From a virus: a DNA stretch of 64,000 bases. Shown one piece after another: positions 45,089 to 62,385 of the stretch (position 1 is the first letter of the stretch; each line of letters begins with the position of its first letter). The notes beneath the pieces are model-generated. The model did no database searches, was not told the origin of the DNA, and saw only the letters and a program-made list of their open reading frames with translations. The position numbers and the translations under genes were made by a program. Where the stretch lies: positions 1-64,000 of the IMG/VR virus record IMGVR_UViG_3300047564_002155. One strand, written 5' to 3'.

Positions 45089-46024
45089 ATGGAGGAAAGA
45101 CTATTATCACTTTTAGAATCAATTCTTGGTAAGTCCAAGAAAACTTCGGGCGACAATTACTCGTTCTATTCTCCATTTGTAGACCACTACAAGAGAAAAT
45201 TAGAAATCAATATACGATTAAATTCCAAAGGAGAAAATCCTTGGCATTGTTGGATTTCTGATGAGAAGGGTAGAACTATTAAATCCCTTTTCAAAAAACT
45301 TCGTGTATCCAAACAAACTTGGGATGAATACAATTCAATCTTCAGCAAGGTCAACCGATATGCAAGTGAGTATGAAACTACTGAAATTGTAGAACAAGTA
45401 GAACTCCCAAAAGAATTCAAACCACTTTACCAAAAGTCAGATTCCATCAAATGGAAACACGCTATGAATTACTTGTTAAATCGTGGGGTTCGTGCTGAAG
45501 ATATTGTTAAATACAATATTGGATATTGTGAGGGTGGTGAATACGACAATAAAATTATCATCCCATCCTATGATGAGCGTGGTAAGTTAAACTACTTTGT
45601 TGGTAGGTCATTTTATGATACAAAGTTTAAACACAAAAATCCAAAGGTTTCCAAAGATATAGTTGGGTTTGATTTGTTAGTGAATTGGGATACTCCTATT
45701 ATCCTATGTGAGGGTGCGTTTGACGCTATTTCAATTAGAAGAAATGCTATACCGCTTTTCGGTAAATCAATACAACCAAACCTTGAAAAGAAAATACTTG
45801 GAAAATTGGTAAAAAAGTTGTATATTTGTTTAGATTCGGATGCTATAAAAAATTCCATAGGATTGGCTGAAAAGTTTGTATCGTATGGAATTGAAACGTA
45901 TTTAGTGGAGTTAAAAGATAAAGACCCATCTGAAATGGGATATGAAAATATAAATAAACTTATTTACAATACACCACCCTTAACACTCCGAAGGTTGGTT
46001 GAGTTGAAGATGAACGGCTTATGA
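45089..46024 (+). CDS. DNA primase (TOPRIM)
   Basis: YL..RG, IIIP, GR, CEGAFDA, LDSD, KDP; sigma-A-type promoter at 45054-45084. Confidence 0.9.
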   Translation: MEERLLSLLESILGKSKKTSGDNYSFYSPFVDHYKRKLEINIRLNSKGENPWHCWISDEKGRTIKSLFKKLRVSKQTWDEYNSIFSKVNRYASEYETTEIVEQVELPKEFKPLYQKSDSIKWKHAMNYLLNRGVRAEDIVKYNIGYCEGGEYDNKIIIPSYDERGKLNYFVGRSFYDTKFKHKNPKVSKDIVGFDLLVNWDTPIILCEGAFDAISIRRNAIPLFGKSIQPNLEKKILGKLVKKLYICLDSDAIKNSIGLAEKFVSYGIETYLVELKDKDPSEMGYENINKLIYNTPPLTLRRLVELKMNGL

Positions 46025-49000
46025 GTAAAGTTAAAACTCTTAATATTGGTATAGAAAAGATTGGTAAGATTTACCATATCGCAGATGTCCACATTAGAAA
46101 CCTAAAAAGACACTCCGAGTATCGTGATGTGTTTTCCCAACTTTATGGGTATATTTTGTCCACAATGTCGGAAAACGACATCATCGTAGTTGCTGGTGAT
46201 ATTGTCCACGCTAAAACCGATATGTCACCCGAAGTAGTAGATTTAACGCAAGAGTTCTTTACTCGTTTATCAGACCTACTTCCAACTATTGTAATTCCTG
46301 GCAACCACGATGCTAATCTAAACAACCCATCTCGTATGGACGCTTTACAACCTATTGTAAATGCGTTGAAACTTGATAATCTATACTATCTTCGTGATAC
46401 GGGTGTTTGGAAGATTGGTAATTGTTCGTTCTATCATCAGTCGGTATTTGATGAATCACCGGGGTTCCCAACACCGGTTGATGTTGAGGGGTGTGACCAT
46501 AAGATTGCATTATTTCACGGAGCGGTTGATAAAATTGTTACCGAGTTTGGGTTTGTAATTGAAAACAAAAAAGTTCTTGTAGATAATTTCAAGGGATATG
46601 ATATTGTTCTTCTTGGCGATATTCACAAACCAAACAATGGTGTATTAGGTAATGAGTGGATTAAGTATCCTGGCTCTTTGATTATGCAGAATCACGCCGA
46701 ATCGGTATTTCCAGAACACGGAATCTTGGTATGGGATGTTGATACAAAAACAAACGAATTCGTTCAGATTAAAAATCCATATGGGTATGTGACTGTTGAT
46801 GTTGAGAATGGTAAGATTGTATCTAACTCACCGATTCCACAAAAACCACGAATGAGAATTCGTGTTAAAAACACCAAAGCTGCTGACCTAAACAAACTGA
46901 TTGCAGAATTAAAGAAGGGTAGACAAGTACAAGAACTTACGGTTCAAAAAGTTATTACTCGTAAGGATTCTAACGAAAGTGAAAAGATTGTTCTTCAAAA
47001 TGTTCGTGATGTTGCATATCAGAATAAATTGATTGAAGAGTACCTTTCCGATACCGAACATTTGACTGAAGACCAAATGAGTGTTGTAAAGGGAATCAAC
47101 ACCGACCTCAATGCTAAGTTGGGTAGTCACACTATCAAACTGAATTCTACTTGGGTTCCAAAAACATTTGAGTTCTCAAATATGTTTTCATATGGAGCAA
47201 ACAATATTATTGACTTCAGCAATATGAAAGGTGCTTATGGAATCTTTGCACCAAACGCAAGTGGTAAGTCAACTCTTTGGGATGCTCTTTCGTTTTGTAT
47301 CTTTGATAAGTGTTCACGAACCTCAAAGGCTGAGGATGTGATGAACTACTCTAAAAATTCGTTTGATTGTAAATTTACTTTTGACCTGAATGGGGTTGAC
47401 TATGTGATTGAACGAAGTGCAAAGAAATCTCCAAAGAGGGGGACTGTAAAGGTAGATACAAACTTTTACAAAATAGAAAATGGTGTGATGGAATCTCTTA
47501 ATGGAGAACAACGAAGAGACACCAACTTTATTATCCGTGAGTATGTGGGAACATATGATGACTTCATCCTTACAGCAATGTCCACTCAATCAAACAATAC
47601 AGGGTTTATTGACAAGTCACAAAAGGAAAGAAAAGAACTACTTGCTCAATTCTTGGATATGGATGTATTTGAATCTCTTTACCAAATTGCAAGTGAAGAA
47701 ATCAAAGAATTATCTGCTCTTCTAAAGGATTATAAGAATCAAGACCTACCGACCCAATTAGCTGACGCTGAGGAGACTTTAACATCCATTACAGGTTCTT
47801 TAACCGAATTAGAAGATAAGCGTCTTAAATTGGATTCTCAGCGAGATTCAATCAACACAAAGATTGAGTTTGAAGTTGGTAGTTTAAAGCCCGTTGATGA
47901 TGTTGGTGATGTGGAACAATTAGAAACACATTTAGAGTCACTTAACAAGCAACGAAAAAGACAAGATACCGAATGTGGTGTAAATCTTTCGGAGCTTAAA
48001 AGTATAGAAACAAAACAACAAGATGTTGAGTCAAAGATGTCCAATTTAAACATTGATGACTTAAAAGAAAAAAATGAACAATACAAAACTTACAATAATA
48101 AGTTTAATGAAATGGGAGTTCAACTTGATAAGTTGGAATCTCAAATGGTTCACGCTAAAAAACACTTGGATGGTATTGGGTCTCTTACCTTTGATGATAA
48201 TTGTGACCATTGTGTAAGTAATAAAAACACACCATTTGCAAAACAAGCCCAAACCCTTGAAGATGAGTTGAAAAAATTGGGTAATGAATATACTGACTTG
48301 GTAACCAAACGTATGGATGTAATGACCCTACGAAATCAAAATGATGTGACCAAAGAGCTAAAGCTTTGGGATGACCTTTCCGAAACTTCTTCTAAATTGG
48401 AAAAGGAATGGTTAAAGGTCAGTCGTTCGTATGAGTCGTGTTTATCGCTTGTTAAGGACTATGATACCTCTATTAAAAATTTAGAGATTGATATTCAAAA
48501 AGCCAAGAACCAACAACAAGCGGTAGAGCATAACAAATTGGTAAAGGAAAAGATACAATCTTTAAAAGGTAAACGAACTGAAATTGAAGAGTCTATCAAA
48601 GAAACTACCAATGAGTTAATGAATATCAATTCAGAAATTAAGGTAGCTGAAAAAACCATTGAGAATGTTCATCAGTCTTTGGAAAAACTTCGTGGTATGG
48701 AAATGAAATACGATGGGTATGAATATTACCTCAAGTGTGTAAAGAGAGATGGTATTCCTTACAATCTTATTTCAGAGGTTCTTCCAAAATTAGAAATGGA
48801 AATTAACAACATCCTTTCACCTATTGTAGATTTCCAAATCCTATTGAATACGGATGGTAAAAACATCAATTCGTATATTGCATATGGTGATGCTGAATAC
48901 TGGCCATTAGAACTTACAAGTGGTATGGAAAAATTCATTTCATCTATCGCAATCCGAACTGCTTTGATAAATGTGTCTAATTTACCAAGACCAAACTTTA

Positions 49001-49191
49001 TTGCAATTGATGAGGGATTTGGGTCATTAGACACGGACAACTTCAACTCACTCTATTTATTATTTGATTATCTAAAGACGCAGTTTGATTTTATAATCAC
49101 CATTTCGCACATTGATAAAACGAGGGATATGGTAGATTTCATTATTGACATCAATAAAATCAAAGGGTTTTCATCTATAAGATATTTATAA
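46021..49191 (+). CDS. fused Mre11/SbcD (gp47) - Rad50/SbcC (gp46) nuclease-ATPase
   Basis: ADVH, GDIVH, GNHD, GDIH; NASGKST; CDHC zinc hook; TSGMEK; IDEGFG.LD; ISH. Confidence 0.92.
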   Translation: MSKVKTLNIGIEKIGKIYHIADVHIRNLKRHSEYRDVFSQLYGYILSTMSENDIIVVAGDIVHAKTDMSPEVVDLTQEFFTRLSDLLPTIVIPGNHDANLNNPSRMDALQPIVNALKLDNLYYLRDTGVWKIGNCSFYHQSVFDESPGFPTPVDVEGCDHKIALFHGAVDKIVTEFGFVIENKKVLVDNFKGYDIVLLGDIHKPNNGVLGNEWIKYPGSLIMQNHAESVFPEHGILVWDVDTKTNEFVQIKNPYGYVTVDVENGKIVSNSPIPQKPRMRIRVKNTKAADLNKLIAELKKGRQVQELTVQKVITRKDSNESEKIVLQNVRDVAYQNKLIEEYLSDTEHLTEDQMSVVKGINTDLNAKLGSHTIKLNSTWVPKTFEFSNMFSYGANNIIDFSNMKGAYGIFAPNASGKSTLWDALSFCIFDKCSRTSKAEDVMNYSKNSFDCKFTFDLNGVDYVIERSAKKSPKRGTVKVDTNFYKIENGVMESLNGEQRRDTNFIIREYVGTYDDFILTAMSTQSNNTGFIDKSQKERKELLAQFLDMDVFESLYQIASEEIKELSALLKDYKNQDLPTQLADAEETLTSITGSLTELEDKRLKLDSQRDSINTKIEFEVGSLKPVDDVGDVEQLETHLESLNKQRKRQDTECGVNLSELKSIETKQQDVESKMSNLNIDDLKEKNEQYKTYNNKFNEMGVQLDKLESQMVHAKKHLDGIGSLTFDDNCDHCVSNKNTPFAKQAQTLEDELKKLGNEYTDLVTKRMDVMTLRNQNDVTKELKLWDDLSETSSKLEKEWLKVSRSYESCLSLVKDYDTSIKNLEIDIQKAKNQQQAVEHNKLVKEKIQSLKGKRTEIEESIKETTNELMNINSEIKVAEKTIENVHQSLEKLRGMEMKYDGYEYYLKCVKRDGIPYNLISEVLPKLEMEINNILSPIVDFQILLNTDGKNINSYIAYGDAEYWPLELTSGMEKFISSIAIRTALINVSNLPRPNFIAIDEGFGSLDTDNFNSLYLLFDYLKTQFDFIITISHIDKTRDMVDFIIDINKIKGFSSIRYL

Positions 49192-51609: not shown

Positions 51610-54600
51610 ATGGGAAATTTAATTAAAGAGTGGGTTAGGGGAATTCTTGTTGAAGAAGTAAAACAAGAAGTAGTAGTTTATGCTGGAAGGTTTCAACCAT
51701 TTCACAAAGGACACTACGCTACCTATGAACATTTGGTAAAAAAGTTTGGTAAGCAAAATGTCTTTGTTGGGACCTCAAATCAACAAGGTGGTCCAAGACA
51801 TCCATTTAATTTTAAAGAAAAACGAGAAATTATGATGAAGATGTTTAACATCCCATCATCACAAATTGTCCAAGTAAAAAACCCATACCAACCAAGTGAG
51901 GTTTTAAATAAATTTGATTCTAAAACCACCGCATTTATCACGGTAGTTGGTGAAAAGGATGAGGCTCGTTTGGGTGGTAAATACTTTAAGAAATACGATG
52001 GTAAGCCCGAAAGTGGATATCTTGATAACGGATATGTGTATGTATCCCCGGCACAACCAAACGCAATAAGCGGAACTGATGTTCGTAATTGGTTATCAGC
52101 ATCAGATGATTCTCAAAGAAAAGCTGGATTCAAGAAAGCATACCCAAAGTTTGACCCAAAGATTTACAATTTAATTTCAACAAGGTTAATGAAGATTGAA
52201 TCCGTAATGGAATCGTTCTTTAAATCATTTGATGTTGAATCTCTTTTAGAGGGCTCTCTTTATGGGGCAGATGCTGGTGAACCCGACACTATGTTTGTAT
52301 TGCCAGGAAAAACTCGCAAACTTGGAATGAAAAATCCAGGTCAAAAAGATGATGTGTGGTTTGTAAATGGTGGTTATGTTCAAATGCACTTTCCGGTAGC
52401 TGATGTGATTGTTTCACCTGATGCAAAGGGGTCATCTGATTACTACCAATATTCATCCAAACGAAATATCCGTAATAATACCGATTTGGAAATCCCACCC
52501 GTAAGTGATGACTTTACAACGGCTAAACAGGGTAGAAAACAAGTTGATGTTCAAGACCTCAAAACCGAAGGTTCTACTATGGGACCAATTTCACTTGATA
52601 TGGTTGATAATGGTCCTGCGTTTTCTTGGGCAAGTAAAGAAAAATACCAATCTGCAAATAACGAAATTGCAAAACGATTGGGATTTGAAGTAGTTGATTG
52701 GATGTTGGGAACTGACTTGGAAACTCAATTTGTTCAAGACCGACCAACACAAGTTTCTTACTATCCAAAAAGTAATAGACCTGCAAATAAAGACTACTCT
52801 GATTGGAAATCTGATATTGAAAAAACAGCCACCGCTGTTGGTGTTGAGTTTATAAATTTTCTTGATAAAAAACAAATTGGATTAAACGAAGACCTTTTCG
52901 GAACATCGTTAAAAATGAAACCATATGAAACCTTGATGGTTAAATCCGTTATTGAATTTATGATGGATAAGTATAATTTTAATGCAAAGATTATAGTAAA
53001 GAAAAAAGAAAAAGTTGGATTGATAGGTGATATATCCTTAAATTCAAATTCAGTAGATGGAAATAAATTTTATTTACACTTTAATCCCAATCAGTCATAT
53101 CAGAGAATAATTCAAACAATGATACACGAGTTGACTCATATCAAACAAGTTTCCAGAAAAGAATTATTACCAAATAAAGACTATACCGCAATACTTTGGA
53201 AGGGTAAAGAATACATAACTGCAAAAGACTATAATAAGTTAATGAAGTCAAGTCCTTCGGAGTATATCAAATTACCTTGGGAAGTTGAAGCTATTTCAAA
53301 TATGAAAAGTTTGTATCCTCAATTTATAAAATCAAAATATTGGTTGGGATTAAAGGGTAAGGACTCTACATTAGATTATATTATCAATACAAACGAAAAT
53401 GTATTAAAAGAATCTTTATTGGTTGAAGGTGGTGCGTATGGTCATATGGCTCACCCATTTGATACTGAAATGAATTTAACTTTTGGTGACTTAAAACAAA
53501 TCATCAACGGAGCCCTAACGGGCGAATTAGAACTTGCAAGAGAAAAGACCGATGGTCAAGCCCTTGCTATTTCGTGGAGAGATGATAAGGGTTTAATTGC
53601 AGCAAGAAACAAAGGACACCTTGCTAATCGTGGTGAAAAGGCATTGGACATTAGCGGTATTGCTTCAAAGTTTGGTGGTAGAGGTGGTTTGACCGACGCA
53701 TACAACTTTGCAATGAAAGACCTTACATCAGCTATCAAAGGTTTATCAAAAGCACAACGAGACAAAATCTTCAAACAAGGTGCAAAGTTTATGAACCTTG
53801 AAGTAATCTGGCCAACATCGGTCAATGTAATCCCTTATGGTCAAGCCCTTTTGGTATTCCACAATACGACTGAATACAACGAAGCTGGTATAGCTATTGG
53901 TGCTGACCAAAGTGATGCAAAGGTTCTTGCTGGGATGATTAAACAAGTTAATGCTGATGTTCAATCAAAATACACAATCCAAGGACCGCCGGTAACCCAA
54001 TTACCAAAGTCGCAAAAACTTACATCTTTAAAATCAAAATTTGATGGTCAGTTGAATAAACTTCAAAAAGAATTTAATTTGAAAGATACTGATGGTGTTG
54101 CAGAATATCACCAAAAGTGGTGGGAAAATTTTGTAGATACAAAATCACCATCAACACTTGATAACAAAACTAAAATGGGTCTTGTTAAAAGATGGGCGTT
54201 CTACGATAAAGGGTTCCGTTTGGACAGTAAAACCATCACCGACCCTAAAGTGTTGACTTGGGCTCAAGGTATAGATAAAAACGACCACGCCAAAATTCAA
54301 AAAGATAATATTAGACCATTTGAAGATATTTTCTTGGGTGTTGGTGCCGAAGTTCTTTCGTTTATGAGTTCAGTTTTAACTGCAAATCCTGATGCTGCTG
54401 TTAGAAGTATGAAAGACCGACTTGACCAAACAGTTAAGGACGTTCAAAAAGCAGGTGACCCAAAGAAAATTGCAAAACTAAAATTAGAATTAGAACGACT
54501 TGCCGCTATTGGTGGTAAAGACAAAATTGTTCCTAATGAGGGTATCGTATTTGTGTATAAAGGTAATACTTATAAACTTACAGGCACATTCGCACCACTC

Positions 54601-54633
54601 AATCAAATTTTAGGATTGTTCTACGGAGAATGA
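51610..54633 (+). CDS. multidomain protein: HIGH nucleotidyltransferase + small domains + HExxH metallopeptidase + RNA-ligase-like NTase
   Basis: GRFQPFHKGH, ISGT.VR; IHELTH..PWEVEA; EKTDG, NLE, EGIVF, YKL. Confidence 0.75.
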   Translation: MGNLIKEWVRGILVEEVKQEVVVYAGRFQPFHKGHYATYEHLVKKFGKQNVFVGTSNQQGGPRHPFNFKEKREIMMKMFNIPSSQIVQVKNPYQPSEVLNKFDSKTTAFITVVGEKDEARLGGKYFKKYDGKPESGYLDNGYVYVSPAQPNAISGTDVRNWLSASDDSQRKAGFKKAYPKFDPKIYNLISTRLMKIESVMESFFKSFDVESLLEGSLYGADAGEPDTMFVLPGKTRKLGMKNPGQKDDVWFVNGGYVQMHFPVADVIVSPDAKGSSDYYQYSSKRNIRNNTDLEIPPVSDDFTTAKQGRKQVDVQDLKTEGSTMGPISLDMVDNGPAFSWASKEKYQSANNEIAKRLGFEVVDWMLGTDLETQFVQDRPTQVSYYPKSNRPANKDYSDWKSDIEKTATAVGVEFINFLDKKQIGLNEDLFGTSLKMKPYETLMVKSVIEFMMDKYNFNAKIIVKKKEKVGLIGDISLNSNSVDGNKFYLHFNPNQSYQRIIQTMIHELTHIKQVSRKELLPNKDYTAILWKGKEYITAKDYNKLMKSSPSEYIKLPWEVEAISNMKSLYPQFIKSKYWLGLKGKDSTLDYIINTNENVLKESLLVEGGAYGHMAHPFDTEMNLTFGDLKQIINGALTGELELAREKTDGQALAISWRDDKGLIAARNKGHLANRGEKALDISGIASKFGGRGGLTDAYNFAMKDLTSAIKGLSKAQRDKIFKQGAKFMNLEVIWPTSVNVIPYGQALLVFHNTTEYNEAGIAIGADQSDAKVLAGMIKQVNADVQSKYTIQGPPVTQLPKSQKLTSLKSKFDGQLNKLQKEFNLKDTDGVAEYHQKWWENFVDTKSPSTLDNKTKMGLVKRWAFYDKGFRLDSKTITDPKVLTWAQGIDKNDHAKIQKDNIRPFEDIFLGVGAEVLSFMSSVLTANPDAAVRSMKDRLDQTVKDVQKAGDPKKIAKLKLELERLAAIGGKDKIVPNEGIVFVYKGNTYKLTGTFAPLNQILGLFYGE

Positions 54634-55239: not shown

Positions 55240-55256
55240 CCATACCTATTTATTTT

Positions 55257-57812
55257 GTGAGGTATTATATGAAAAGTAAAGAGTATTACATTCGTTTAGG
55301 TGAAGCGGTTCAAAAGCTAGAAGAAAAGAATTGCCCAACCGACCCATCAAAGTGGTCATATTATAAATCACAAGCAAAAGAAAAGTTTGATGTATATCCA
55401 TCAGCATATGCTAATGGGTGGGCTTCAAAACAATATGGTGATGCTGGTGGTGGTTGGAAGAAATGTGAAAACGAAGCTACTGATTCTCAAGAAAAAGAAT
55501 TTCATACTCAACTTGATAAGTTAGTTCACAAAACTTTTGGTAAAAGTCCGGAAGAAGAAAAAATGGATGAGAAGTTTGATAGAACTCACCTTGGTATTTT
55601 AAAATACGCTTATAAGGACATTGATAAAATCAATCCATCCGACCCAATGTATGTTAGAGTGGCTCAGATGTTGGATAAATTATCAAAACAGGAATTACAA
55701 CAATTGATTGATGCTGACATTAAGTTCATATCACTTCTTGCAAAGAATCGTTTATCAAAAAAAGAATCAGTAAACGAAGAAAAAGTAGATATGGAAGAGC
55801 TAGAAATGATGCTAAAGAAATTAAAAAAAGAGAATCCAGGTAAAAAAGTAACATACAGTTTTATTAAAGGTAAACAATACCCTAAAGGTTATGTTATTAA
55901 AATAAATGGAAAAATTTTAGAAGGTGAATCAGTAAACGAATCTCATTTTCAAGTTGGTGATAATGTCACTTGTCTTAAAAGTGGTATGACTGGTCAAGTT
56001 GTTGGGATGGATAAACCACACGGTGCGGATGATGAGGAATATTATACAGTTAAAAGACAAGATGGTGAAGTAATGAAATACTCACCAAACGAATTAAGAC
56101 TTACTGAAAACACTTTGAAAGAAGGTTTGTTCCAAGACATTATGAGAGCTGTTAAAAAAGGTGATGGTCCTTTCACTTTGGTTGTTATTAAGAACAACAA
56201 AGTAATTAAACAAGTAGAAGTTAAAACTCCACAAGCAATCCCTGCAAACTACTCTTCATTATTAAAAGATTTTCCTAATACGAGAATCAGAATAGAGGAT
56301 GCAACAGGTAAAATTGTAATGGGTGAATCGGTAAACGAAGCTAAGGCAATCGGAAAAAAGATATTCTCTGATGCTAAAGGAAAACTTTTCTTTGGATACC
56401 AAAATGATGATGATACTGTTCAACTTGTAGATTACAAAACTTGGAAAAAACTTCCAATGACGGACTTATCTAATGAGTTTATGGCTAACAGAATAATCAA
56501 CTCAATTGTTAGAAATGAAAGACAATTCAACAAAAAAGTTGAATACAATATGTGGTCTAAAAAGACTAACCCATCTTTTGAAGAGAGAATGGATTACTTC
56601 ATTAAAAACAATTGGATATCTAATATCACTAAAACTGGTATCAAAGAATCGGTAAACGAATCATCAATGAGTAATATTGATATTATCGCACAAGAAGCAA
56701 AAGATTTTAAAGATTTTGTGAAAGAGTTCTACAACGAATACAAAGATTTTCCAAAAGATAGAGATACTATTAAATGGTTAAAAGGTGTTTATGATAATAG
56801 AAGCACAAACGAATCGGTTGAATCATTAGATGAAAAATTACCAAATGAGTTTGCTACCATTCCTAATGATTCTCGTGTAGATGGTATGATGAAACATCTT
56901 CAGCACCATTTGGGTGTTATTAGTAAGAATGTAAAGACTGGTAAAGGTGTTTACAAAAAGGATTTGATGAAGATGGCAAACATCATTAAAGCCCTTCAAA
57001 TGTATGAATCAAAATCAGTAAACGAATCATCGGTTGAAATTGGTGATATCGTATTGTTCCCACCAGCGAATAGTGCTGCTACTGTTGTTGATAGGTTTGG
57101 TAGAAGTGTGACCTTAAAGTTGGCTAATGGTAAAAAAGTTAAAACCGTGGTTGATAAAGTTAAGTTATTAGCACAAGATAATGTAAACGAGGGTAATGCT
57201 TTCACAGGTGCTTTGTTCAAAGCTCGTAAAGAAGGTTTGACTGAATTTGAATTCAACGGAAAAAAATATCCGGTTCACAAACTTGAAGAAGAAAAAGAAG
57301 AAACTCTTGCTGAATCAAAATTGACCAAAGATTCTTTGAAGCAAATTATCAAAGAAGAATACCATAATGTAAAAACCTTTATGGAAGAAAAATACGGATT
57401 TACTCCTGAATTAGGTAAGGTATATTCCAATCTTGCAGCTAAACCTTTTTTAAAAGAAGAAGAGGAAGAGGTAGTTGATGAGTATGATGTAGAAAATTAC
57501 CAAGACCTAAAAGAGTTTGTTCAGTTTATGGCTGAATACAAAAGTGATATCAACGAGGCAGAATATCAAGGTAGAAAAGTAAAACTTGGTAAGATTATGC
57601 AAGGTGATGTTAAGAAATTCAAAGTATATGTTAAGAACGACAAAGGTAATGTTGTTAAAGTAAACTTTGGACAAGGTGGTGATGCTAAGGGTGGAACTAT
57701 GAGAATTCGTAAAGACAATCCTAAAGCAAGAGCATCGTTCAGAGCAAGACACAATTGTGATAACCCTGGTCCAAGATGGAAAGCAAGATATTGGTCTTGT
57801 CGTAAATGGTAA
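55257..57812 (+). CDS. modular polyprotein, putative internal head protein (start may be ATG 55269)
   Basis: repeated ESVNE linkers between unrelated small domains; C-terminal KFKVYVKN..VNFG..FRARHNC..YWSC (DUF6321-like). Confidence 0.75.
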   Translation: MRYYMKSKEYYIRLGEAVQKLEEKNCPTDPSKWSYYKSQAKEKFDVYPSAYANGWASKQYGDAGGGWKKCENEATDSQEKEFHTQLDKLVHKTFGKSPEEEKMDEKFDRTHLGILKYAYKDIDKINPSDPMYVRVAQMLDKLSKQELQQLIDADIKFISLLAKNRLSKKESVNEEKVDMEELEMMLKKLKKENPGKKVTYSFIKGKQYPKGYVIKINGKILEGESVNESHFQVGDNVTCLKSGMTGQVVGMDKPHGADDEEYYTVKRQDGEVMKYSPNELRLTENTLKEGLFQDIMRAVKKGDGPFTLVVIKNNKVIKQVEVKTPQAIPANYSSLLKDFPNTRIRIEDATGKIVMGESVNEAKAIGKKIFSDAKGKLFFGYQNDDDTVQLVDYKTWKKLPMTDLSNEFMANRIINSIVRNERQFNKKVEYNMWSKKTNPSFEERMDYFIKNNWISNITKTGIKESVNESSMSNIDIIAQEAKDFKDFVKEFYNEYKDFPKDRDTIKWLKGVYDNRSTNESVESLDEKLPNEFATIPNDSRVDGMMKHLQHHLGVISKNVKTGKGVYKKDLMKMANIIKALQMYESKSVNESSVEIGDIVLFPPANSAATVVDRFGRSVTLKLANGKKVKTVVDKVKLLAQDNVNEGNAFTGALFKARKEGLTEFEFNGKKYPVHKLEEEKEETLAESKLTKDSLKQIIKEEYHNVKTFMEEKYGFTPELGKVYSNLAAKPFLKEEEEEVVDEYDVENYQDLKEFVQFMAEYKSDINEAEYQGRKVKLGKIMQGDVKKFKVYVKNDKGNVVKVNFGQGGDAKGGTMRIRKDNPKARASFRARHNCDNPGPRWKARYWSCRKW
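55764..57026 (+). repeat. dispersed 15-bp repeat (G/A)AATC(A/G)GTAAACGAA
   Basis: copies at 55764, 55926, 56325, 56646, 57012. Confidence 0.85.
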
Positions 57813-57868
57813 TTATTAACATTGAATTACATACTTATTAGTAGTTTTAAATTAAATTGGAATAAACT

Positions 57869-58144
57869 ATGGAAACATTAAAGAAAGTTTGGAATTGGTT
57901 ACTTGGTAAAACTACCATTGATGAAAAAATCAAAGAAACCGTTGCCGAAGTTAAAAAAGAAGTAGCCGAAGTAAAGGTTGCTGTTGCAGAAGTAAAAGTT
58001 GCTGCTAAAAAAGTAGTAAAAGAAGCATCTGATGTAGCTAATGTAGTAGAAAAAGCTGCTCCTAAAAAGAAAAGATACTACCCAAAGAAAAAAGCTGCTG
58101 CTAAAACCGAACCAACTGCTAAAAAGCCGGCTGCCAAAAAATAA
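57869..58144 (+). CDS. Lys/Ala-rich protein (histone-H1-like tail)
   Basis: AEVK repeats, KKPAAKK; TACTTAT upstream. Confidence 0.65.
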   Translation: METLKKVWNWLLGKTTIDEKIKETVAEVKKEVAEVKVAVAEVKVAAKKVVKEASDVANVVEKAAPKKKRYYPKKKAAAKTEPTAKKPAAKK

Positions 58145-58489
58145 ATGAAACGATTCAATACTCAACAACTTGTAATTCTTGCTTTATTAGCTTTACTGGC
58201 ATATCAATTCTTTTTTGCTGGTAATCGTTACAAAAAAGATTACGAAAGAATGTTGAAAGAGCGTGAACAAGAATACAACACGCAGATTGAAAAGTTAGAA
58301 AGTCAATCAGATTCTCTTTTAAAAATCAATAAAGATATTGAAAAAGAATTAAAAAGAATTGATGGTCAAATTGGCAAAAAAGATGCTCAAATCAATAAGT
58401 TAAGGAAACAATATGAAAAAGATGTTGCTAAGCTTGACGCTATGTCTGATAACGACATTGCCGATGCTTTCACAGACGCTTTCAACTGA
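58145..58489 (+). CDS. i-spanin-like membrane-anchored coiled coil
   Basis: N-terminal TM, periplasmic coiled coil. Confidence 0.5.
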   Translation: MKRFNTQQLVILALLALLAYQFFFAGNRYKKDYERMLKEREQEYNTQIEKLESQSDSLLKINKDIEKELKRIDGQIGKKDAQINKLRKQYEKDVAKLDAMSDNDIADAFTDAFN

Positions 58490-58820
58490 ATCTAACTTAA
58501 TTGCAGTTCCGAGAGCGGCTCTTGAAAACGCATTAAAGGTAAAAGCAGAACGTGACTTGTGTGTTAATGAATTACGATTAACACAAGAAAAGGTTGTTTT
58601 ATACTCAAAATCTATTGATTTGTATAAAGTTGAAGTTGAAAACTTAAATAAAGTTATTACTTCAAAAGATTTGGTTATTGTAGAAAAAAACAAAATAATT
58701 TCTCTAAAAGAAGACCAAATCAAAGTTTTAAAAAGAGAAAAATCTTCTAAAATGTGGCAAGGTCTTTTGGTTGGCTTTGCTGGTGGAGCTGCTACGGTTA
58801 CATTATTGCTCGCTCTATAA
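58413..58820 (+). CDS. spanin-like partner (signal peptide, coiled coil, C-terminal TM)
   Basis: overlaps upstream gene by 77 nt in +1 frame. Confidence 0.5.
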   Translation: MKKMLLSLTLCLITTLPMLSQTLSTESNLIAVPRAALENALKVKAERDLCVNELRLTQEKVVLYSKSIDLYKVEVENLNKVITSKDLVIVEKNKIISLKEDQIKVLKREKSSKMWQGLLVGFAGGAATVTLLLAL

Positions 58821-58830
58821 ATAAAAATGT

Positions 58831-60405
58831 ATGGCAAAAAGTTTAAAGGAACTTATTAGGGAAGAGTACATTAAATGTGCTAAAGACCCAGTGTATTTCT
58901 TTAAGAAATATTGTTATATCCAACACCCTCACCGAGGTAAAATTCTTTTCAATCTTTATGATTTCCAAGAAGATTTGATGAGGGAGTTTGATGACCACAG
59001 GTTTAATGTAATCCTCAAATCACGTCAGTTAGGTATTTCTACTCTATCCGCCGGATACTCTTTATGGATGATGTTATTCCACGAAGATAAAAACATTTTG
59101 GTAATTGCAACCAAACAAGAAGTAGCAAAAAACCTTGTGACTAAAGTAAGGTTTATGCACGAAAACCTACCAAGTTGGTTAAGAGGCCAAACCGAAGAAG
59201 ACAATAAACTTTCTTTACGATTGAGAAATGGTTCTCAAATTAAAGCAACATCAGCAGCAGGTGACGCGGGTCGTTCTGAAGCTCTTTCAATGTTAATTAT
59301 GGATGAGGCTGCGTTTATTTCCAACATTGAAGATATTTGGACTTCTGCTCAATCAACTCTTTCAACCGGTGGTAAAGCTATTGTCTTATCAACTCCAAAT
59401 GGTGTTGGTAACTGGTTTCATAAAATTTGGTTAAAAGGTGAGGCCGGTGATAGTTGGAATCCAATCAAACTTCACTGGACCGTTCACCCTGAACGAAACC
59501 AAAGTTGGAGAGATGACCAAACAAAATTACTTGGTGAAAAGGGCGCAGCACAAGAATGTGATTGTGACTTTATCAGTTCGGGTTACACGGTAGTAGACTC
59601 ATCAATTCTAACTTGGTATACTGAAACTTATATTAAAGACCCAATTGAAAAACGAGGATTTGATGGAAATTATTGGTTGTGGGAATATCCAAATTATTCT
59701 CGTGACTATGTAGTGGTAGCCGATGTGGCTCGTGGCGATTCATCCGACTATTCAGCATTTCACGTTATTGATATTGAAACCGTAGAACAAGTTGCTGAAT
59801 ACAAAGGTAAGATTGAAACCAAACAATATGGAGCATTCCTTACATCGGTTGCTGCGGAGTGGAACAATGCTATGTTGGTGGTTGAAAACGCAAACATTGG
59901 TTGGGCTGTAATCCAAGAAGTTATTGATAGAAACTATACAAACTTATATTACTCATATCGTGAGTTGGGTTATGTAGATGATGATGTCCACCTACGAAAA
60001 GGTTGGGACCTAAAGAAAAAAGAAGATATGGTTCCGGGCTTTACAATGTCTTCACGAACAAGACCTTTGGTGATTTCTAAACTTGATACCTATATGAGAG
60101 AAAAAACACCAATCGTTCACTCAAAGCGTTTAATTGATGAGCTGTTTGTATTCATTTGGAATGGTTCCAAGGCGGAGGCTCAACAAGGGTATAACGATGA
60201 CTTGGTTATGTCGTTCTCCACAGGACTTTGGGTAAGAGACACCGCATTAAAATTAAGACAACAGGGTATAGATTTAAGCCGTACCGCATTAACTCACATT
60301 TCAAAGACTCAAGGTGGTGTTTACAACGCCAGAATGGGACAACATAATCCTTGGGTATTAAAAGATGGTAGAGGTAATGATGTAGATATGACTTGGATAC
60401 TTTAA
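58831..60405 (+). CDS. terminase large subunit (T4 gp17-like)
   Basis: KSRQLGIST, IMDEAAF, STPNG, ADVARG, VENAN, NDDLVMS. Confidence 0.95.
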   Translation: MAKSLKELIREEYIKCAKDPVYFFKKYCYIQHPHRGKILFNLYDFQEDLMREFDDHRFNVILKSRQLGISTLSAGYSLWMMLFHEDKNILVIATKQEVAKNLVTKVRFMHENLPSWLRGQTEEDNKLSLRLRNGSQIKATSAAGDAGRSEALSMLIMDEAAFISNIEDIWTSAQSTLSTGGKAIVLSTPNGVGNWFHKIWLKGEAGDSWNPIKLHWTVHPERNQSWRDDQTKLLGEKGAAQECDCDFISSGYTVVDSSILTWYTETYIKDPIEKRGFDGNYWLWEYPNYSRDYVVVADVARGDSSDYSAFHVIDIETVEQVAEYKGKIETKQYGAFLTSVAAEWNNAMLVVENANIGWAVIQEVIDRNYTNLYYSYRELGYVDDDVHLRKGWDLKKKEDMVPGFTMSSRTRPLVISKLDTYMREKTPIVHSKRLIDELFVFIWNGSKAEAQQGYNDDLVMSFSTGLWVRDTALKLRQQGIDLSRTALTHISKTQGGVYNARMGQHNPWVLKDGRGNDVDMTWIL

Positions 60406-60477
60406 TTTGGTAGTGTAGTTTATTTTTTGTATATTTATAGATTGTAAAAGTATACTCTTTTAGTTTAGAAAAACATT

Positions 60478-62337
60478 ATGGCAGACAATTCATTATTTGG
60501 AAGATTACAAAAACTATTCGCTACCCAAGTCATCGTAAGAAGAGTTGGGAAGAATCGTTTACAAGCCGTAGACTCACAAAGACTACAATCTCAAGGTAAT
60601 ATCCGTGGAACATCATACTACGATAGATTTGGTCGTTTACATACTTCTCGTAGGAATTGGGAAACCTACAACCAACAATTTAATTATCACTCAAACAAGT
60701 TAGAATTGTATACTGACTATGAGGCGATGGACAAAGATTCAATCATTACTTCTATTTTGGATATCTACTCCGATGAGTGTACCTTAAAGAACGATATGGG
60801 TGATGTGATTCGTATTAAATCTTCTGATGAGAATCTAAAAAAAATCCTTCACAACTTATTTTATGATATCTTAAATATTGAATTCAACCTTTGGGCTTGG
60901 GTTCGTGGTATGAACAAATATGGTGACTACTTTTTGTATTTAGATATTGAAGAGGGAGTTGGTATTGTAAATGTCCAACCAATTTCAGCATACGAATTTG
61001 AACGTGAAGAGGGATTTAATCCTGATAACCCTTATGAGGTTAGATTTAAATTATCCAATATGAGTTCTTCTACCAATTTCTCATATGGTAAAGATAAAAA
61101 TACATACTTCCCATTTTATCAGATTGCACACTTTAGATTAATGACCGACTCAAACTTCCTACCATATGGTCGTTCTTTGTTAGAGGGTGCTAGAAAAACT
61201 TGGAAACAATTAACTCTTATGGAAGACGCAATGATGATTCATAGAATTATGAGGGCGCCTGAAAAGAGAATCTTTAAAATTGATGTTGGTAATATCCCAC
61301 CACAAGAGGTTGACCAACATATGAGAAACATTATTGATGGAATGAAAAAAGTTCCATATATTGACCAGAACACGGGTGATTACAACCTCAAGTTCAATAT
61401 GATGAATATGTTGGAAGACTATTTCTTGCCGGTTCGTGGTGGTCAAAGTGGAACTGAAATTGATTCTTTGAGTGGTATGGAATTCGGTGGTATTGATGAT
61501 ATTGAATACCTAAAGAATAGAATGATGGCTGCTTTAAAAGTTCCTAAAGCATTCATTGGATATGAAGAGGGTGTGGAAGGTAAAGCTACCCTTGCTCAAC
61601 AAGACATCAGATTTGCAAGAACTGTGGAACGAGTTCAAAAGATTGTTCTATCAGAACTTACTAAAATTGCAATTGTTCACCTTTACTCACAAGGATACGA
61701 AAACGAAGACCTCGTTAATTTTGAGTTAGAGCTTACAAACCCATCTATTATTTACGAACAAGAGAAAATTGCTTTACTTTCTGAAAAGACAACTCTTGTA
61801 AGCAATATGAAGGATTTGAAGATGATTTCACAAGAGTGGATTTACAAAAACATCTTTAATATGTCTGATGATGAGTGGGAAAAAGAACAACAAAAAGTAA
61901 TTGATGACTTGAAGTTATCGTTCAGACACGAACAAATTACTACCGAAGGTAACGACCCAGCTAAAACGGGTGAATCGTTTGGAACACCTCACGACCTTGC
62001 TGTGATTGCACAACAACCTGCTGAAGAAGAGGGTGGTTCTCCTGAAGGTGGATTTCCTGGCGCTGGAAGACCAACTGAAAGTGGAACATACGGAACCGAC
62101 CAAGCAAATATGGGTAGAGACCCACTTGGTAAACAAACCGACATTAGTAGAGACAGTACATATCATAATTTTAGAAAAGGGCCAATGGCGGTTGAATCTC
62201 AAACGGCATTAAAATCTTCTCTGAAAAAAATGAAGGTTAAAACCAAGTCTATGATTATGGAATCCTTAAAACCAGAGTCTAAAACTGAAGAGCTGGGGTT
62301 GTTGGATGAGTCACAATTGTTAGATGATACGATTTAA
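60478..62337 (+). CDS. portal protein (T4 gp20-like)
   Basis: MEDAMMIHRIMRAPEKRIFKIDVGN, EDYFLP.RGG, ALKVP. Confidence 0.95.
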   Translation: MADNSLFGRLQKLFATQVIVRRVGKNRLQAVDSQRLQSQGNIRGTSYYDRFGRLHTSRRNWETYNQQFNYHSNKLELYTDYEAMDKDSIITSILDIYSDECTLKNDMGDVIRIKSSDENLKKILHNLFYDILNIEFNLWAWVRGMNKYGDYFLYLDIEEGVGIVNVQPISAYEFEREEGFNPDNPYEVRFKLSNMSSSTNFSYGKDKNTYFPFYQIAHFRLMTDSNFLPYGRSLLEGARKTWKQLTLMEDAMMIHRIMRAPEKRIFKIDVGNIPPQEVDQHMRNIIDGMKKVPYIDQNTGDYNLKFNMMNMLEDYFLPVRGGQSGTEIDSLSGMEFGGIDDIEYLKNRMMAALKVPKAFIGYEEGVEGKATLAQQDIRFARTVERVQKIVLSELTKIAIVHLYSQGYENEDLVNFELELTNPSIIYEQEKIALLSEKTTLVSNMKDLKMISQEWIYKNIFNMSDDEWEKEQQKVIDDLKLSFRHEQITTEGNDPAKTGESFGTPHDLAVIAQQPAEEEGGSPEGGFPGAGRPTESGTYGTDQANMGRDPLGKQTDISRDSTYHNFRKGPMAVESQTALKSSLKKMKVKTKSMIMESLKPESKTEELGLLDESQLLDDTI

Positions 62338-62385
62338 CCTACAATACGATATTTATTTATTAGAAAGTCAAATAAAAGGTTTGAA

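Follow-up and report, generated by a model that had tools for sequence, protein, structure and literature searches.

The first 64,000 nucleotides (nt) of IMG/VR virus record IMGVR_UViG_3300047564_002155, a contig of 168,128 bp from an uncultured T4-like freshwater phage with a G+C content of 36.9%, were analyzed and are referred to here as the window. Near its right end lies a gene for a polyprotein built from 13 small modules joined by short linkers, the most frequent of which is ESVNE, and five of these linkers are encoded by the same 15-nt word. Between close relatives, whole modules are gained, lost, and reordered, and the changes end at this word. As a tentative reading, held at slightly less than an even chance, we propose that the ESVNE word is dual coded, its peptide acting as a release site for the head protease and its DNA as an in-frame crossover point for cassettes, by which a clade of aquatic T4-like phages would load and re-assort injected small proteins behind a single targeting signal.

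The open reading frame (ORF) of the polyprotein is open on the plus strand across 55257 to 57812. An earlier note on this DNA, made from the letters alone, had begun the gene at the GTG at 55257, and this codon is kept as an alternative start. The ATG at 55269 is most likely the true start, giving a gene of 55269 to 57812 and a product of 847 amino acids (aa), because the GTG sits within a GAGG Shine-Dalgarno sequence located 5 nt 5′ of the ATG and because an identical database protein (P0002) begins at the ATG. The 15-nt word, matching RAATCRGTAAACGAA and encoding (E/K)SVNE, was found at 55764, 55926, 56325, 56646, and 57012, in every case on the plus strand and in frame. Shuffling of the window gave a chance expectation of 0.07 matches, and five were reached in 0 of 100 shuffles; the five positions listed in the earlier note for a conserved 15-bp repeat were recovered by exact match. 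Only four further copies occur in the genome, at 64748, 66025, 66454, and 66661, all of them in two genes between the prohead protease and scaffold genes. The GAATC contained in the repeat was also considered as a GANTC methylation site, an idea that was discarded as the 604 GANTC sites of the genome are close to expectation.

The polyprotein can be divided into a 12-aa leader and 13 segments of 32 to 107 aa (4 to 13 kDa). ESVNE marks four of the junctions and KSVNE one, and the remaining eight carry variants of the same peptide pattern (DNVNE, DINE, SLDE, TLKE, TLAE, KMDE, CENE, and RLGE). About a dozen unrelated modules on ESVNE-type linkers had been described in the earlier note; 13 were counted here, mutually dissimilar in sequence, with the linker as the sole shared part. 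That the repeats and the modular array are real is practically certain. The parts of the gene, in window coordinates, are as follows.

55269 to 57812, plus strand: polyprotein gene (ORF, Shine-Dalgarno sequence, database protein P0002)
55269 to 55304, plus strand: N-terminal leader, 12 aa, ends L-G-E; MK(N/S)KEYYIRLGE in about 75 of 266 homologs
55305 to 55475, plus strand: module A, 57 aa, YPSAYA..GGGW domain, possibly DUF5872-like by a weak atlas lead
55476 to 55571, plus strand: module B, 32 aa, acidic, spacer-like
55572 to 55778, plus strand: module C, 69 aa, ends with ESVNE repeat 1 (55764 to 55778)
55779 to 55940, plus strand: module D, 54 aa, ends with ESVNE repeat 2 (55926 to 55940); presence varies among close relatives
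55941 to 56123, plus strand: module E, 61 aa, beta-rich, SH3/KOW-like, ends TLKE
56124 to 56339, plus strand: module F, 72 aa, ends with ESVNE repeat 3 (56325 to 56339)
56340 to 56660, plus strand: module G, 107 aa, ends with ESVNE repeat 4 (56646 to 56660); presence varies among relatives
56661 to 56834, plus strand: module H, 58 aa, ends SLDE
56835 to 57026, plus strand: module I, 64 aa, ends with KSVNE repeat 5 (57012 to 57026)
57027 to 57191, plus strand: module J, 55 aa, SH3-like, ends DNVNE (GAT AAT GTA AAC GAG)
57192 to 57314, plus strand: module K, 41 aa, GNAFTGAL.., ends TLAE
57315 to 57557, plus strand: module L, 81 aa, acidic, helical, ends DINE
57558 to 57809, plus strand: module M, 84 aa, net charge +17, RHNC..YWSC; the commonest module

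A word-indexed search identified 2381 relatives of 468 to 1490 aa with widely variable lengths and coverage, and an exhaustive HMMER search identified 5899 cluster representatives (50% identity) sharing at least one module. Module M was present in most of the 5899 and was almost always C-terminal. Among the 120 best homologs, 266 ESVNE, 87 DNVNE, 59 SVVNE, and 53 KSVNE linkers were counted, and the spacing between linkers shifted in whole-module steps with the linker kept. When 266 proteins were cut after VNE and the pieces clustered, 184 segment clusters were obtained. Architectures written as strings of these clusters were combinatorial and reordered; typically, an N-terminal block and a C-terminal J-K-L-M block were retained, with the interior varying in content and order. 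A single module can lie at very different positions in different proteins, as for module C, which occupies residues 4 to 72, 65 to 133, 212 to 280, or 296 to 364 in homologs. Module A was also found inside cyanophage proteins, and the E/F junction, TLKE here, is a canonical SVNE linker in other homologs. Single modules were located in other phage genes, as the earlier note had suggested could be looked for, and also as free-standing genes.

Nucleotide comparisons placed the ends of these rearrangements. One syntenic relative (L020) shares 94 to 98% identity with the window on both sides and lacks exactly 55779 to 55925, and the overlap between its alignment pieces is the 15-nt repeat. Module D is missing from both L020 and a second locus (L005), again with alignment pieces overlapping by 15 nt, and L005 also lacks module G. 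In a 182-kb syntenic contig (L019) with flanks 93 to 98% identical, identity ends at 55469, at the A/B junction, and resumes at 57017, inside repeat 5; its breakpoints in the downstream head genes fall at 64762, 66040, 66469, and 66661, every one a repeat. Contigs from two other studies join 55763 to 55926, and a contig from a lake metagenome joins 56324 to 56646, skipping 321 nt; in each the 15 nt fit both sides. Such repeat-to-repeat joins came from independent metagenomes of lakes and estuaries. A contig from an RNA library joins 56820 to 57027, and further contigs swap out or skip modules beginning at a repeat. RNA-library contigs were also considered as proof of transcription, but they cover parts of the gene and cannot show it. 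Of the distinct ends of BLASTN high-scoring segment pairs inside the gene across 20 loci, 60% lay no more than 15 nt from a junction, compared with 16% under random placement of segment ends (maximum, 38% in 10,000 simulations). The proposal that the repeat is where indels and module swaps stop, which the earlier note had set beforehand as a test that could fail, held in every comparison run, and we are highly confident that it describes how these genes change. Repeats, modular architecture, and breakpoints at the repeats are all read directly from these comparisons.

The linkers are conserved as DNA as well as peptide. A codon analysis was carried out on 52 nonredundant VNE contexts from this genome and related loci. 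GTA was the Val codon in 51 of them, compared with 37% of Val codons in the remainder of these genes, and AAC was the Asn codon in 45, compared with 39%, in agreement with the earlier observation that the linkers share codons while synonyms vary in the rest of the gene. The linker Ser was TCA, TCG, or TCC; TCT and AGT, which make up 44% of Ser codons elsewhere, did not occur. Conservation was limited to the 15 nt, with background levels immediately outside, and within the word a 9-nt core was 98 to 100% conserved at most positions. Against a special role for this DNA, the 52 contexts are phylogenetically nonindependent, and GTA, AAC, and GAA are also favored codons of the capsid and scaffold genes; the codon bias could be partly translational. 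Translational optimization was rejected as the full cause, since it explains part of the bias only and neither GTA in 51 of 52 contexts nor the avoidance of TCT, which is the favored Ser codon of the capsid and scaffold genes. On the simplest reading, the linkers would be copies of one word, spread and homogenized by the recombination that moves the modules.

A further point against recombination at the word is its length, as 15 nt is short for homologous recombination. A specialized enzyme, for example a homing-type endonuclease or a site-specific recombinase, could instead act on the word, making it comparable to integron attC sites or shufflon repeats, which would suit the exact breakpoints and the sharp core with its abrupt drop outside. 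This is very improbable: no recombinase or endonuclease is linked to the arrays in the annotated neighborhood, the copies are all direct repeats sharing a single reading frame, which a coding constraint would impose, and T4-type phages recombine at short homologies without a dedicated enzyme (see the discussion in PMC2839356).

Turning to the peptide, the three residues before the start of a homologous module are almost always [V/L/I/M]-x-Glu (13 module starts, 266 homologs), a pattern with a background of 2.8% per position. Noncanonical junctions follow it too, reading LKE, LEE, LDE, INE, LAE, IKE, MNE, or LGE. VNE is overrepresented 14.5-fold. The residue that follows it would be P1′ in terms of cleavage and lies outside the 15-nt repeat; 70% of 331 contexts have Ala, Gly, or Ser there, compared with a background of 19%. 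Synonymous variants of the word occur (TCA/TCG/TCC, AAC/AAT, and GAA/GAG) with VNE fixed, which indicates selection on the peptide. In the Pelagibacter siphophage Kolga, gp56 is a free-standing gene of 79 aa that begins exactly at the L/M junction. The gene immediately downstream of the protease starts with a module of family 4, a family also found inside orthologs of the polyprotein gene. Where copies of module A are internal in the 266 homologs, they are preceded by another hydrophobic-x-Glu tripeptide, and the 12-aa leader of the polyprotein may be a candidate propeptide or capsid-targeting-like sequence.

These patterns bear on the possibility that the product is an uncleaved, beads-on-a-string multidomain protein in which the word is kept and spread only for cassette recombination, ESVNE being incidental. 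Such a protein would account for DNA conservation beyond amino acid need and for breakpoint evidence that is all at the DNA level. Atlas and AlphaFold 2 models show separate small domains with weak linkers, as any multidomain protein would; the full-length AlphaFold 2 model is poor, with a mean predicted local distance difference test (pLDDT) score of 43 and confidence dips at several linkers. An uncleaved chain leaves unexplained, however, why junctions without the DNA word still read hydrophobic-x-Glu, why P1′ is mostly small although outside the repeat, why VNE is fixed under synonymous variation, and why a free-standing homolog starts exactly at a junction. We consider it unlikely.

The alternative that we favor is cleavage by the prohead protease of the phage itself. 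Prohead proteases of the T4 family recognize a short motif that ends in Glu and cleave on its C-terminal side, and the T4 internal proteins and Alt lose a targeting peptide of 10 to 20 aa by gp21-type cleavage (PMC5694885, PMC7411985, PMC9958956). The junction pattern of the polyprotein fits this rule. A gp21-type protease is encoded by this phage, as by T4. The large terminase gene begins about 1 kb downstream of the polyprotein gene and is followed by a T4-type portal gene, two small ORFs, the gp21-type protease gene, two genes, a bS21-like ORF, an acidic scaffold-like gene, and a Gp23-type capsid gene (the Gp23 Pfam family was also found in the genome), in keeping with the terminase-portal-gp21 block recognized in the earlier note. 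The genes concerned are the following, in window coordinates unless stated.

58831 to 60405, plus strand: large terminase, PHROG 2
60478 to 62337, plus strand: T4-type portal, Pfam Portal_T4, 249 bits
63873 to 64000, with the gene continuing to genome position 64514, plus strand: start of the T4 gp21-type prohead protease, Peptidase_S77 (PF03420), 108 bits
Genome positions 64511 to 65341 and 65353 to 66963: two ESVNE-bearing genes after the protease

Peptidase_S77 was identified on four of five related contigs; on the fifth, the polyprotein gene is near the contig end, and the protease gene may lie off it. The products of the two ESVNE genes, the scaffold protein, and the capsid protein all begin with short leaders ending L-x-E. 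The T4 consensus is said to be (L/I)-x-E, reportedly from Black et al. in 1994. Homology to T4 gp23 gave two candidates for the capsid maturation site, LLE-51 and VSE-60, so that the preference at P3 is not fixed by it.

Several observations weigh against the linkers as sites for this protease. The polyprotein leader ends in LGE, whereas genes near the protease have leaders of the LLKE type, and the gene itself is outside the protease-scaffold block, upstream of the terminase. Hydrophobic-x-Glu tripeptides are common, at 2.8% of positions, and linkers rich in Glu and small residues might have an origin unrelated to any protease. Module M is also present as free-standing copies in SAR11 and Roseobacter siphophages and podophages, and if these phages have no S77-type protease, then the modules are not inherently head proteins. 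The suggestion of the earlier note that the linker is a prohead protease site is nevertheless supported, as a pattern, by features independent of the DNA repeat, and the balance tips modestly toward the linker being such a site and the products being head cargo.

Cleavage by the prohead protease could also serve head assembly, the pieces being core- or scaffold-like filler or DNA-condensing proteins, like T4 gp22, gp67, gp68, or the basic internal proteins, rather than effectors. The same linker and shared modules in the genes between the protease and the scaffold gene point this way. The strong basicity of module M (+17) does so as well, but half of the modules are acidic or neutral. No module resembled a known anti-defense protein or enzyme in Pfam, PHROG, and fold searches, which also speaks for assembly. 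Against it, modules turn over and change order quickly between phages that are otherwise almost identical, a behavior typical of accessory genes involved in conflict and not of assembly parts, and free-standing copies are found in unrelated phage types. An assembly role is quite unlikely on these grounds.

Searches for function returned little beyond families of unknown function. No Pfam family matched the whole polyprotein at threshold, PHROG matches were only to families of unknown function, and sequence searches of the PDB with the polyprotein and with a module M profile found nothing. Pfam identified no peptidase embedded in the polyprotein, and no similarity to T4 internal proteins was detected in Pfam and PHROG searches. 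All clusters retrieved from the atlas were viral and of unknown function, and the leads to DUF5872 and DUF5754 were weak. A homolog (P0107) carries a precomputed CarD_TRCF_RID match, which bears on the SH3/KOW-like module E. The AlphaFold 2 model of module M (pLDDT, 82.5) consists of a small beta unit followed by two basic helices; comparison with solved folds using Foldseek and VIA-align gave no credible match (best E value, 0.66; best Z score, 2.1). Contig depth over this module (window 57480 to 57911) was up to about 30-fold higher in an estuary metagenome. Given this rise in depth together with the free-standing genes in SAR11 and Roseobacter phages, module M appears to be a very widespread small viral domain.

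By terminase, the nearest cultured phages are Microcystis phage Mel-JY01 and Flavobacterium phage immuto, each with 58% identity to the terminase of this phage and with the same head-gene order; similarity to the terminases of HTVC008M-type pelagimyophages is lower. In phage immuto, gene 191, upstream of the terminase, encodes 842 aa with ESVNE, ESLNE, ALNE, and KLNE sites. Sequencing runs holding the sequence came from freshwater, lake, and estuary metagenomes. The earlier note had placed a late motif before the polyprotein gene. This was not upheld: the T4 late promoter TATAAATA was not found upstream of the gene, its frequency in the window matches expectation (8 sites; 7.96 expected), and only a loose TATTTAT-like word recurs, 20 to 70 nt upstream of several structural genes, at these positions.

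Window 55245 to 55256, 62346 to 62360, and 60440 to 60452: TATTTAT-like word
Genome 67110 to 67125, 67490 to 67500, and 71040 to 71050: TATTTAT-like word

Other features of the neighborhood were recorded. The bS21-like ORF, small and basic, occupies genome positions 67126 to 67407, between the ESVNE genes and the scaffold gene, and the head block of Mel-JY01 has a gene annotated RpsU (ribosomal protein S21) between the protease and capsid genes. Between the polyprotein stop codon and the following gene (window 57812 to 57830), an insertion of approximately 0.6 to 1 kb is present in several related loci (L001 to L004, L009, and L010). Just upstream of the terminase, two genes overlap (58145 to 58489 and 58413 to 58820); the first encodes an N-terminal hydrophobic helix and has a weak match to an Rz-like spanin PHROG, the second has a lipoprotein-like signal with Cys at its start, and the pair looks like an i-spanin and o-spanin. 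On the other side of the polyprotein gene, 51610 to 54633 encodes a protein of 1007 aa whose N-terminal domain is cytidylyltransferase/NMNAT-like (Pfam CTP_transf_like) and whose leader ends I-K-E. Its syntenic ortholog in L019 is 763 aa, with identity lost over window 52565 to 53413; as the ortholog is shorter and identity is lost internally, this gene also varies by a whole internal block. Further upstream, a single ORF of 1056 aa (46021 to 49191) combines a Metallophos domain (SbcD/gp47-like) with an SbcC/gp46-like AAA_23 domain, which are two separate genes in T4.

Taken together, the following mechanism can be proposed for the polyprotein, in which cleavage, packaging, delivery, and module function are the parts that we infer. 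The modules would be small and independently evolving, and the junctions would be cut by the Peptidase_S77 protease of the phage at sites with a hydrophobic P3, any residue at P2, Glu at P1, and a small P1′. The chain would enter the prohead as one unit, where the protease would cut it into pieces of 4 to 13 kDa, too large to exit the shell. These would remain with the DNA as internal cargo, like the T4 internal proteins, and may reach the next host. In this phage lineage, the commonest form of the site would be one nearly fixed 15-nt word, and because the word recurs in frame between unrelated modules, it could act as a micro-homology. Recombination between copies, within a genome or between coinfecting relatives, would then delete, insert, replace, or reorder whole modules and leave the reading frame and the cleavage site intact. 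We judge this combination of protease-cut head cargo with micro-homology shuffling marginally more probable than its negation.

If modules are cut out and delivered, the arrays would amount to a natural plug-in system, with many small proteins per head behind one entry signal. Abundant freshwater and marine phages would then hold a very large, fast-evolving reservoir of candidate host-takeover and anti-defense proteins, with a module pool of well over a hundred families. Domain shuffling would be made safe, one short word keeping frame, processing site, and recombination target together, and the arrangement suggests a possible design for multicargo loading of T4-type capsids. The cultured relative immuto offers testable predictions.

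No description of such a system was found in the literature, a full-text search for the linker motif gave nothing relevant, and genomics papers on pelagimyophages do not mention such genes. The view that the system is undescribed thus holds for the searchable literature; close conceptual precedents do exist. The nearest are the T4 internal proteins IPI, IPII, IPIII, and Alt, which belong to a T4-type phage with a Peptidase_S77 protease (PMC9958956, PMC7411985, PMC12373910). They too are small. In T4 they have a short N-terminal peptide ending in hydrophobic-x-Glu and are nonessential, and their loci, like that of the polyprotein, are highly variable between close relatives (hyperplastic). T4 Ip1 to Ip3 are injected, and each blocks one GmrSD restriction enzyme (PMC12373910), which is the kind of role proposed here for the polyprotein modules. 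However, the T4 proteins are encoded by separate genes, each with its own leader, whereas here a chain holds up to about 13 modules with putative internal sites.

The promoter early stem-loop (PeSL) cassettes, and PeSL-like repeats at T-even internal protein loci, resemble the polyprotein in that a repeat flanks accessory cassettes in T4-type phages and breakpoints fall in that conserved repeat (Arbiol et al. 2010, PMC2839356; Comeau et al. 2014, PMC4122927), as was found here. PeSL repeats are about 100 bp and intergenic, carry a promoter and a terminator stem-loop, and move genes; the repeat here is 15 nt, in frame within an ORF, a putative protease site, and moves protein domains. Polyvalent proteins of phages and conjugative elements (Iyer, Burroughs, Anand, de Souza, and Aravind 2017, PMC5512222) have 2 to 15 disparate domains per chain in variable architectures, as does the polyprotein, and it has been proposed that they accompany the DNA and that proteolysis frees them. 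They use recognizable enzymatic or DNA-binding domains, including conflict domains such as methylases, ADP-ribosyltransferases (ARTs), nucleases, and ArdC-N, often with an embedded peptidase (MPTase). None of these was found by Pfam and PHROG searches in the polyprotein, whose modules are small and without function by homology, whose protease would act in trans, and whose linker is one and conserved as DNA.

In the giant phages phiKZ, 201phi2-1, and SPN3US, a gp21-related protease cuts many head proteins after Glu, at AXE or S/A/G-X-E, sometimes at multiple sites (PMC5694885, PMC9026906). That cleavage mostly strips long propeptides from large proteins, and no arrays of exchangeable mini-domains or DNA-conserved linkers have been reported for it. 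None of these four precedents has the combination seen in the polyprotein, in which domain cassettes lie within one ORF, the putative protease acts in trans, and one 15-nt word would provide frame, cleavage site, and crossover. Should the word indeed be read at both levels, the system would do with protein domains what integrons and PeSLs do with gene cassettes.

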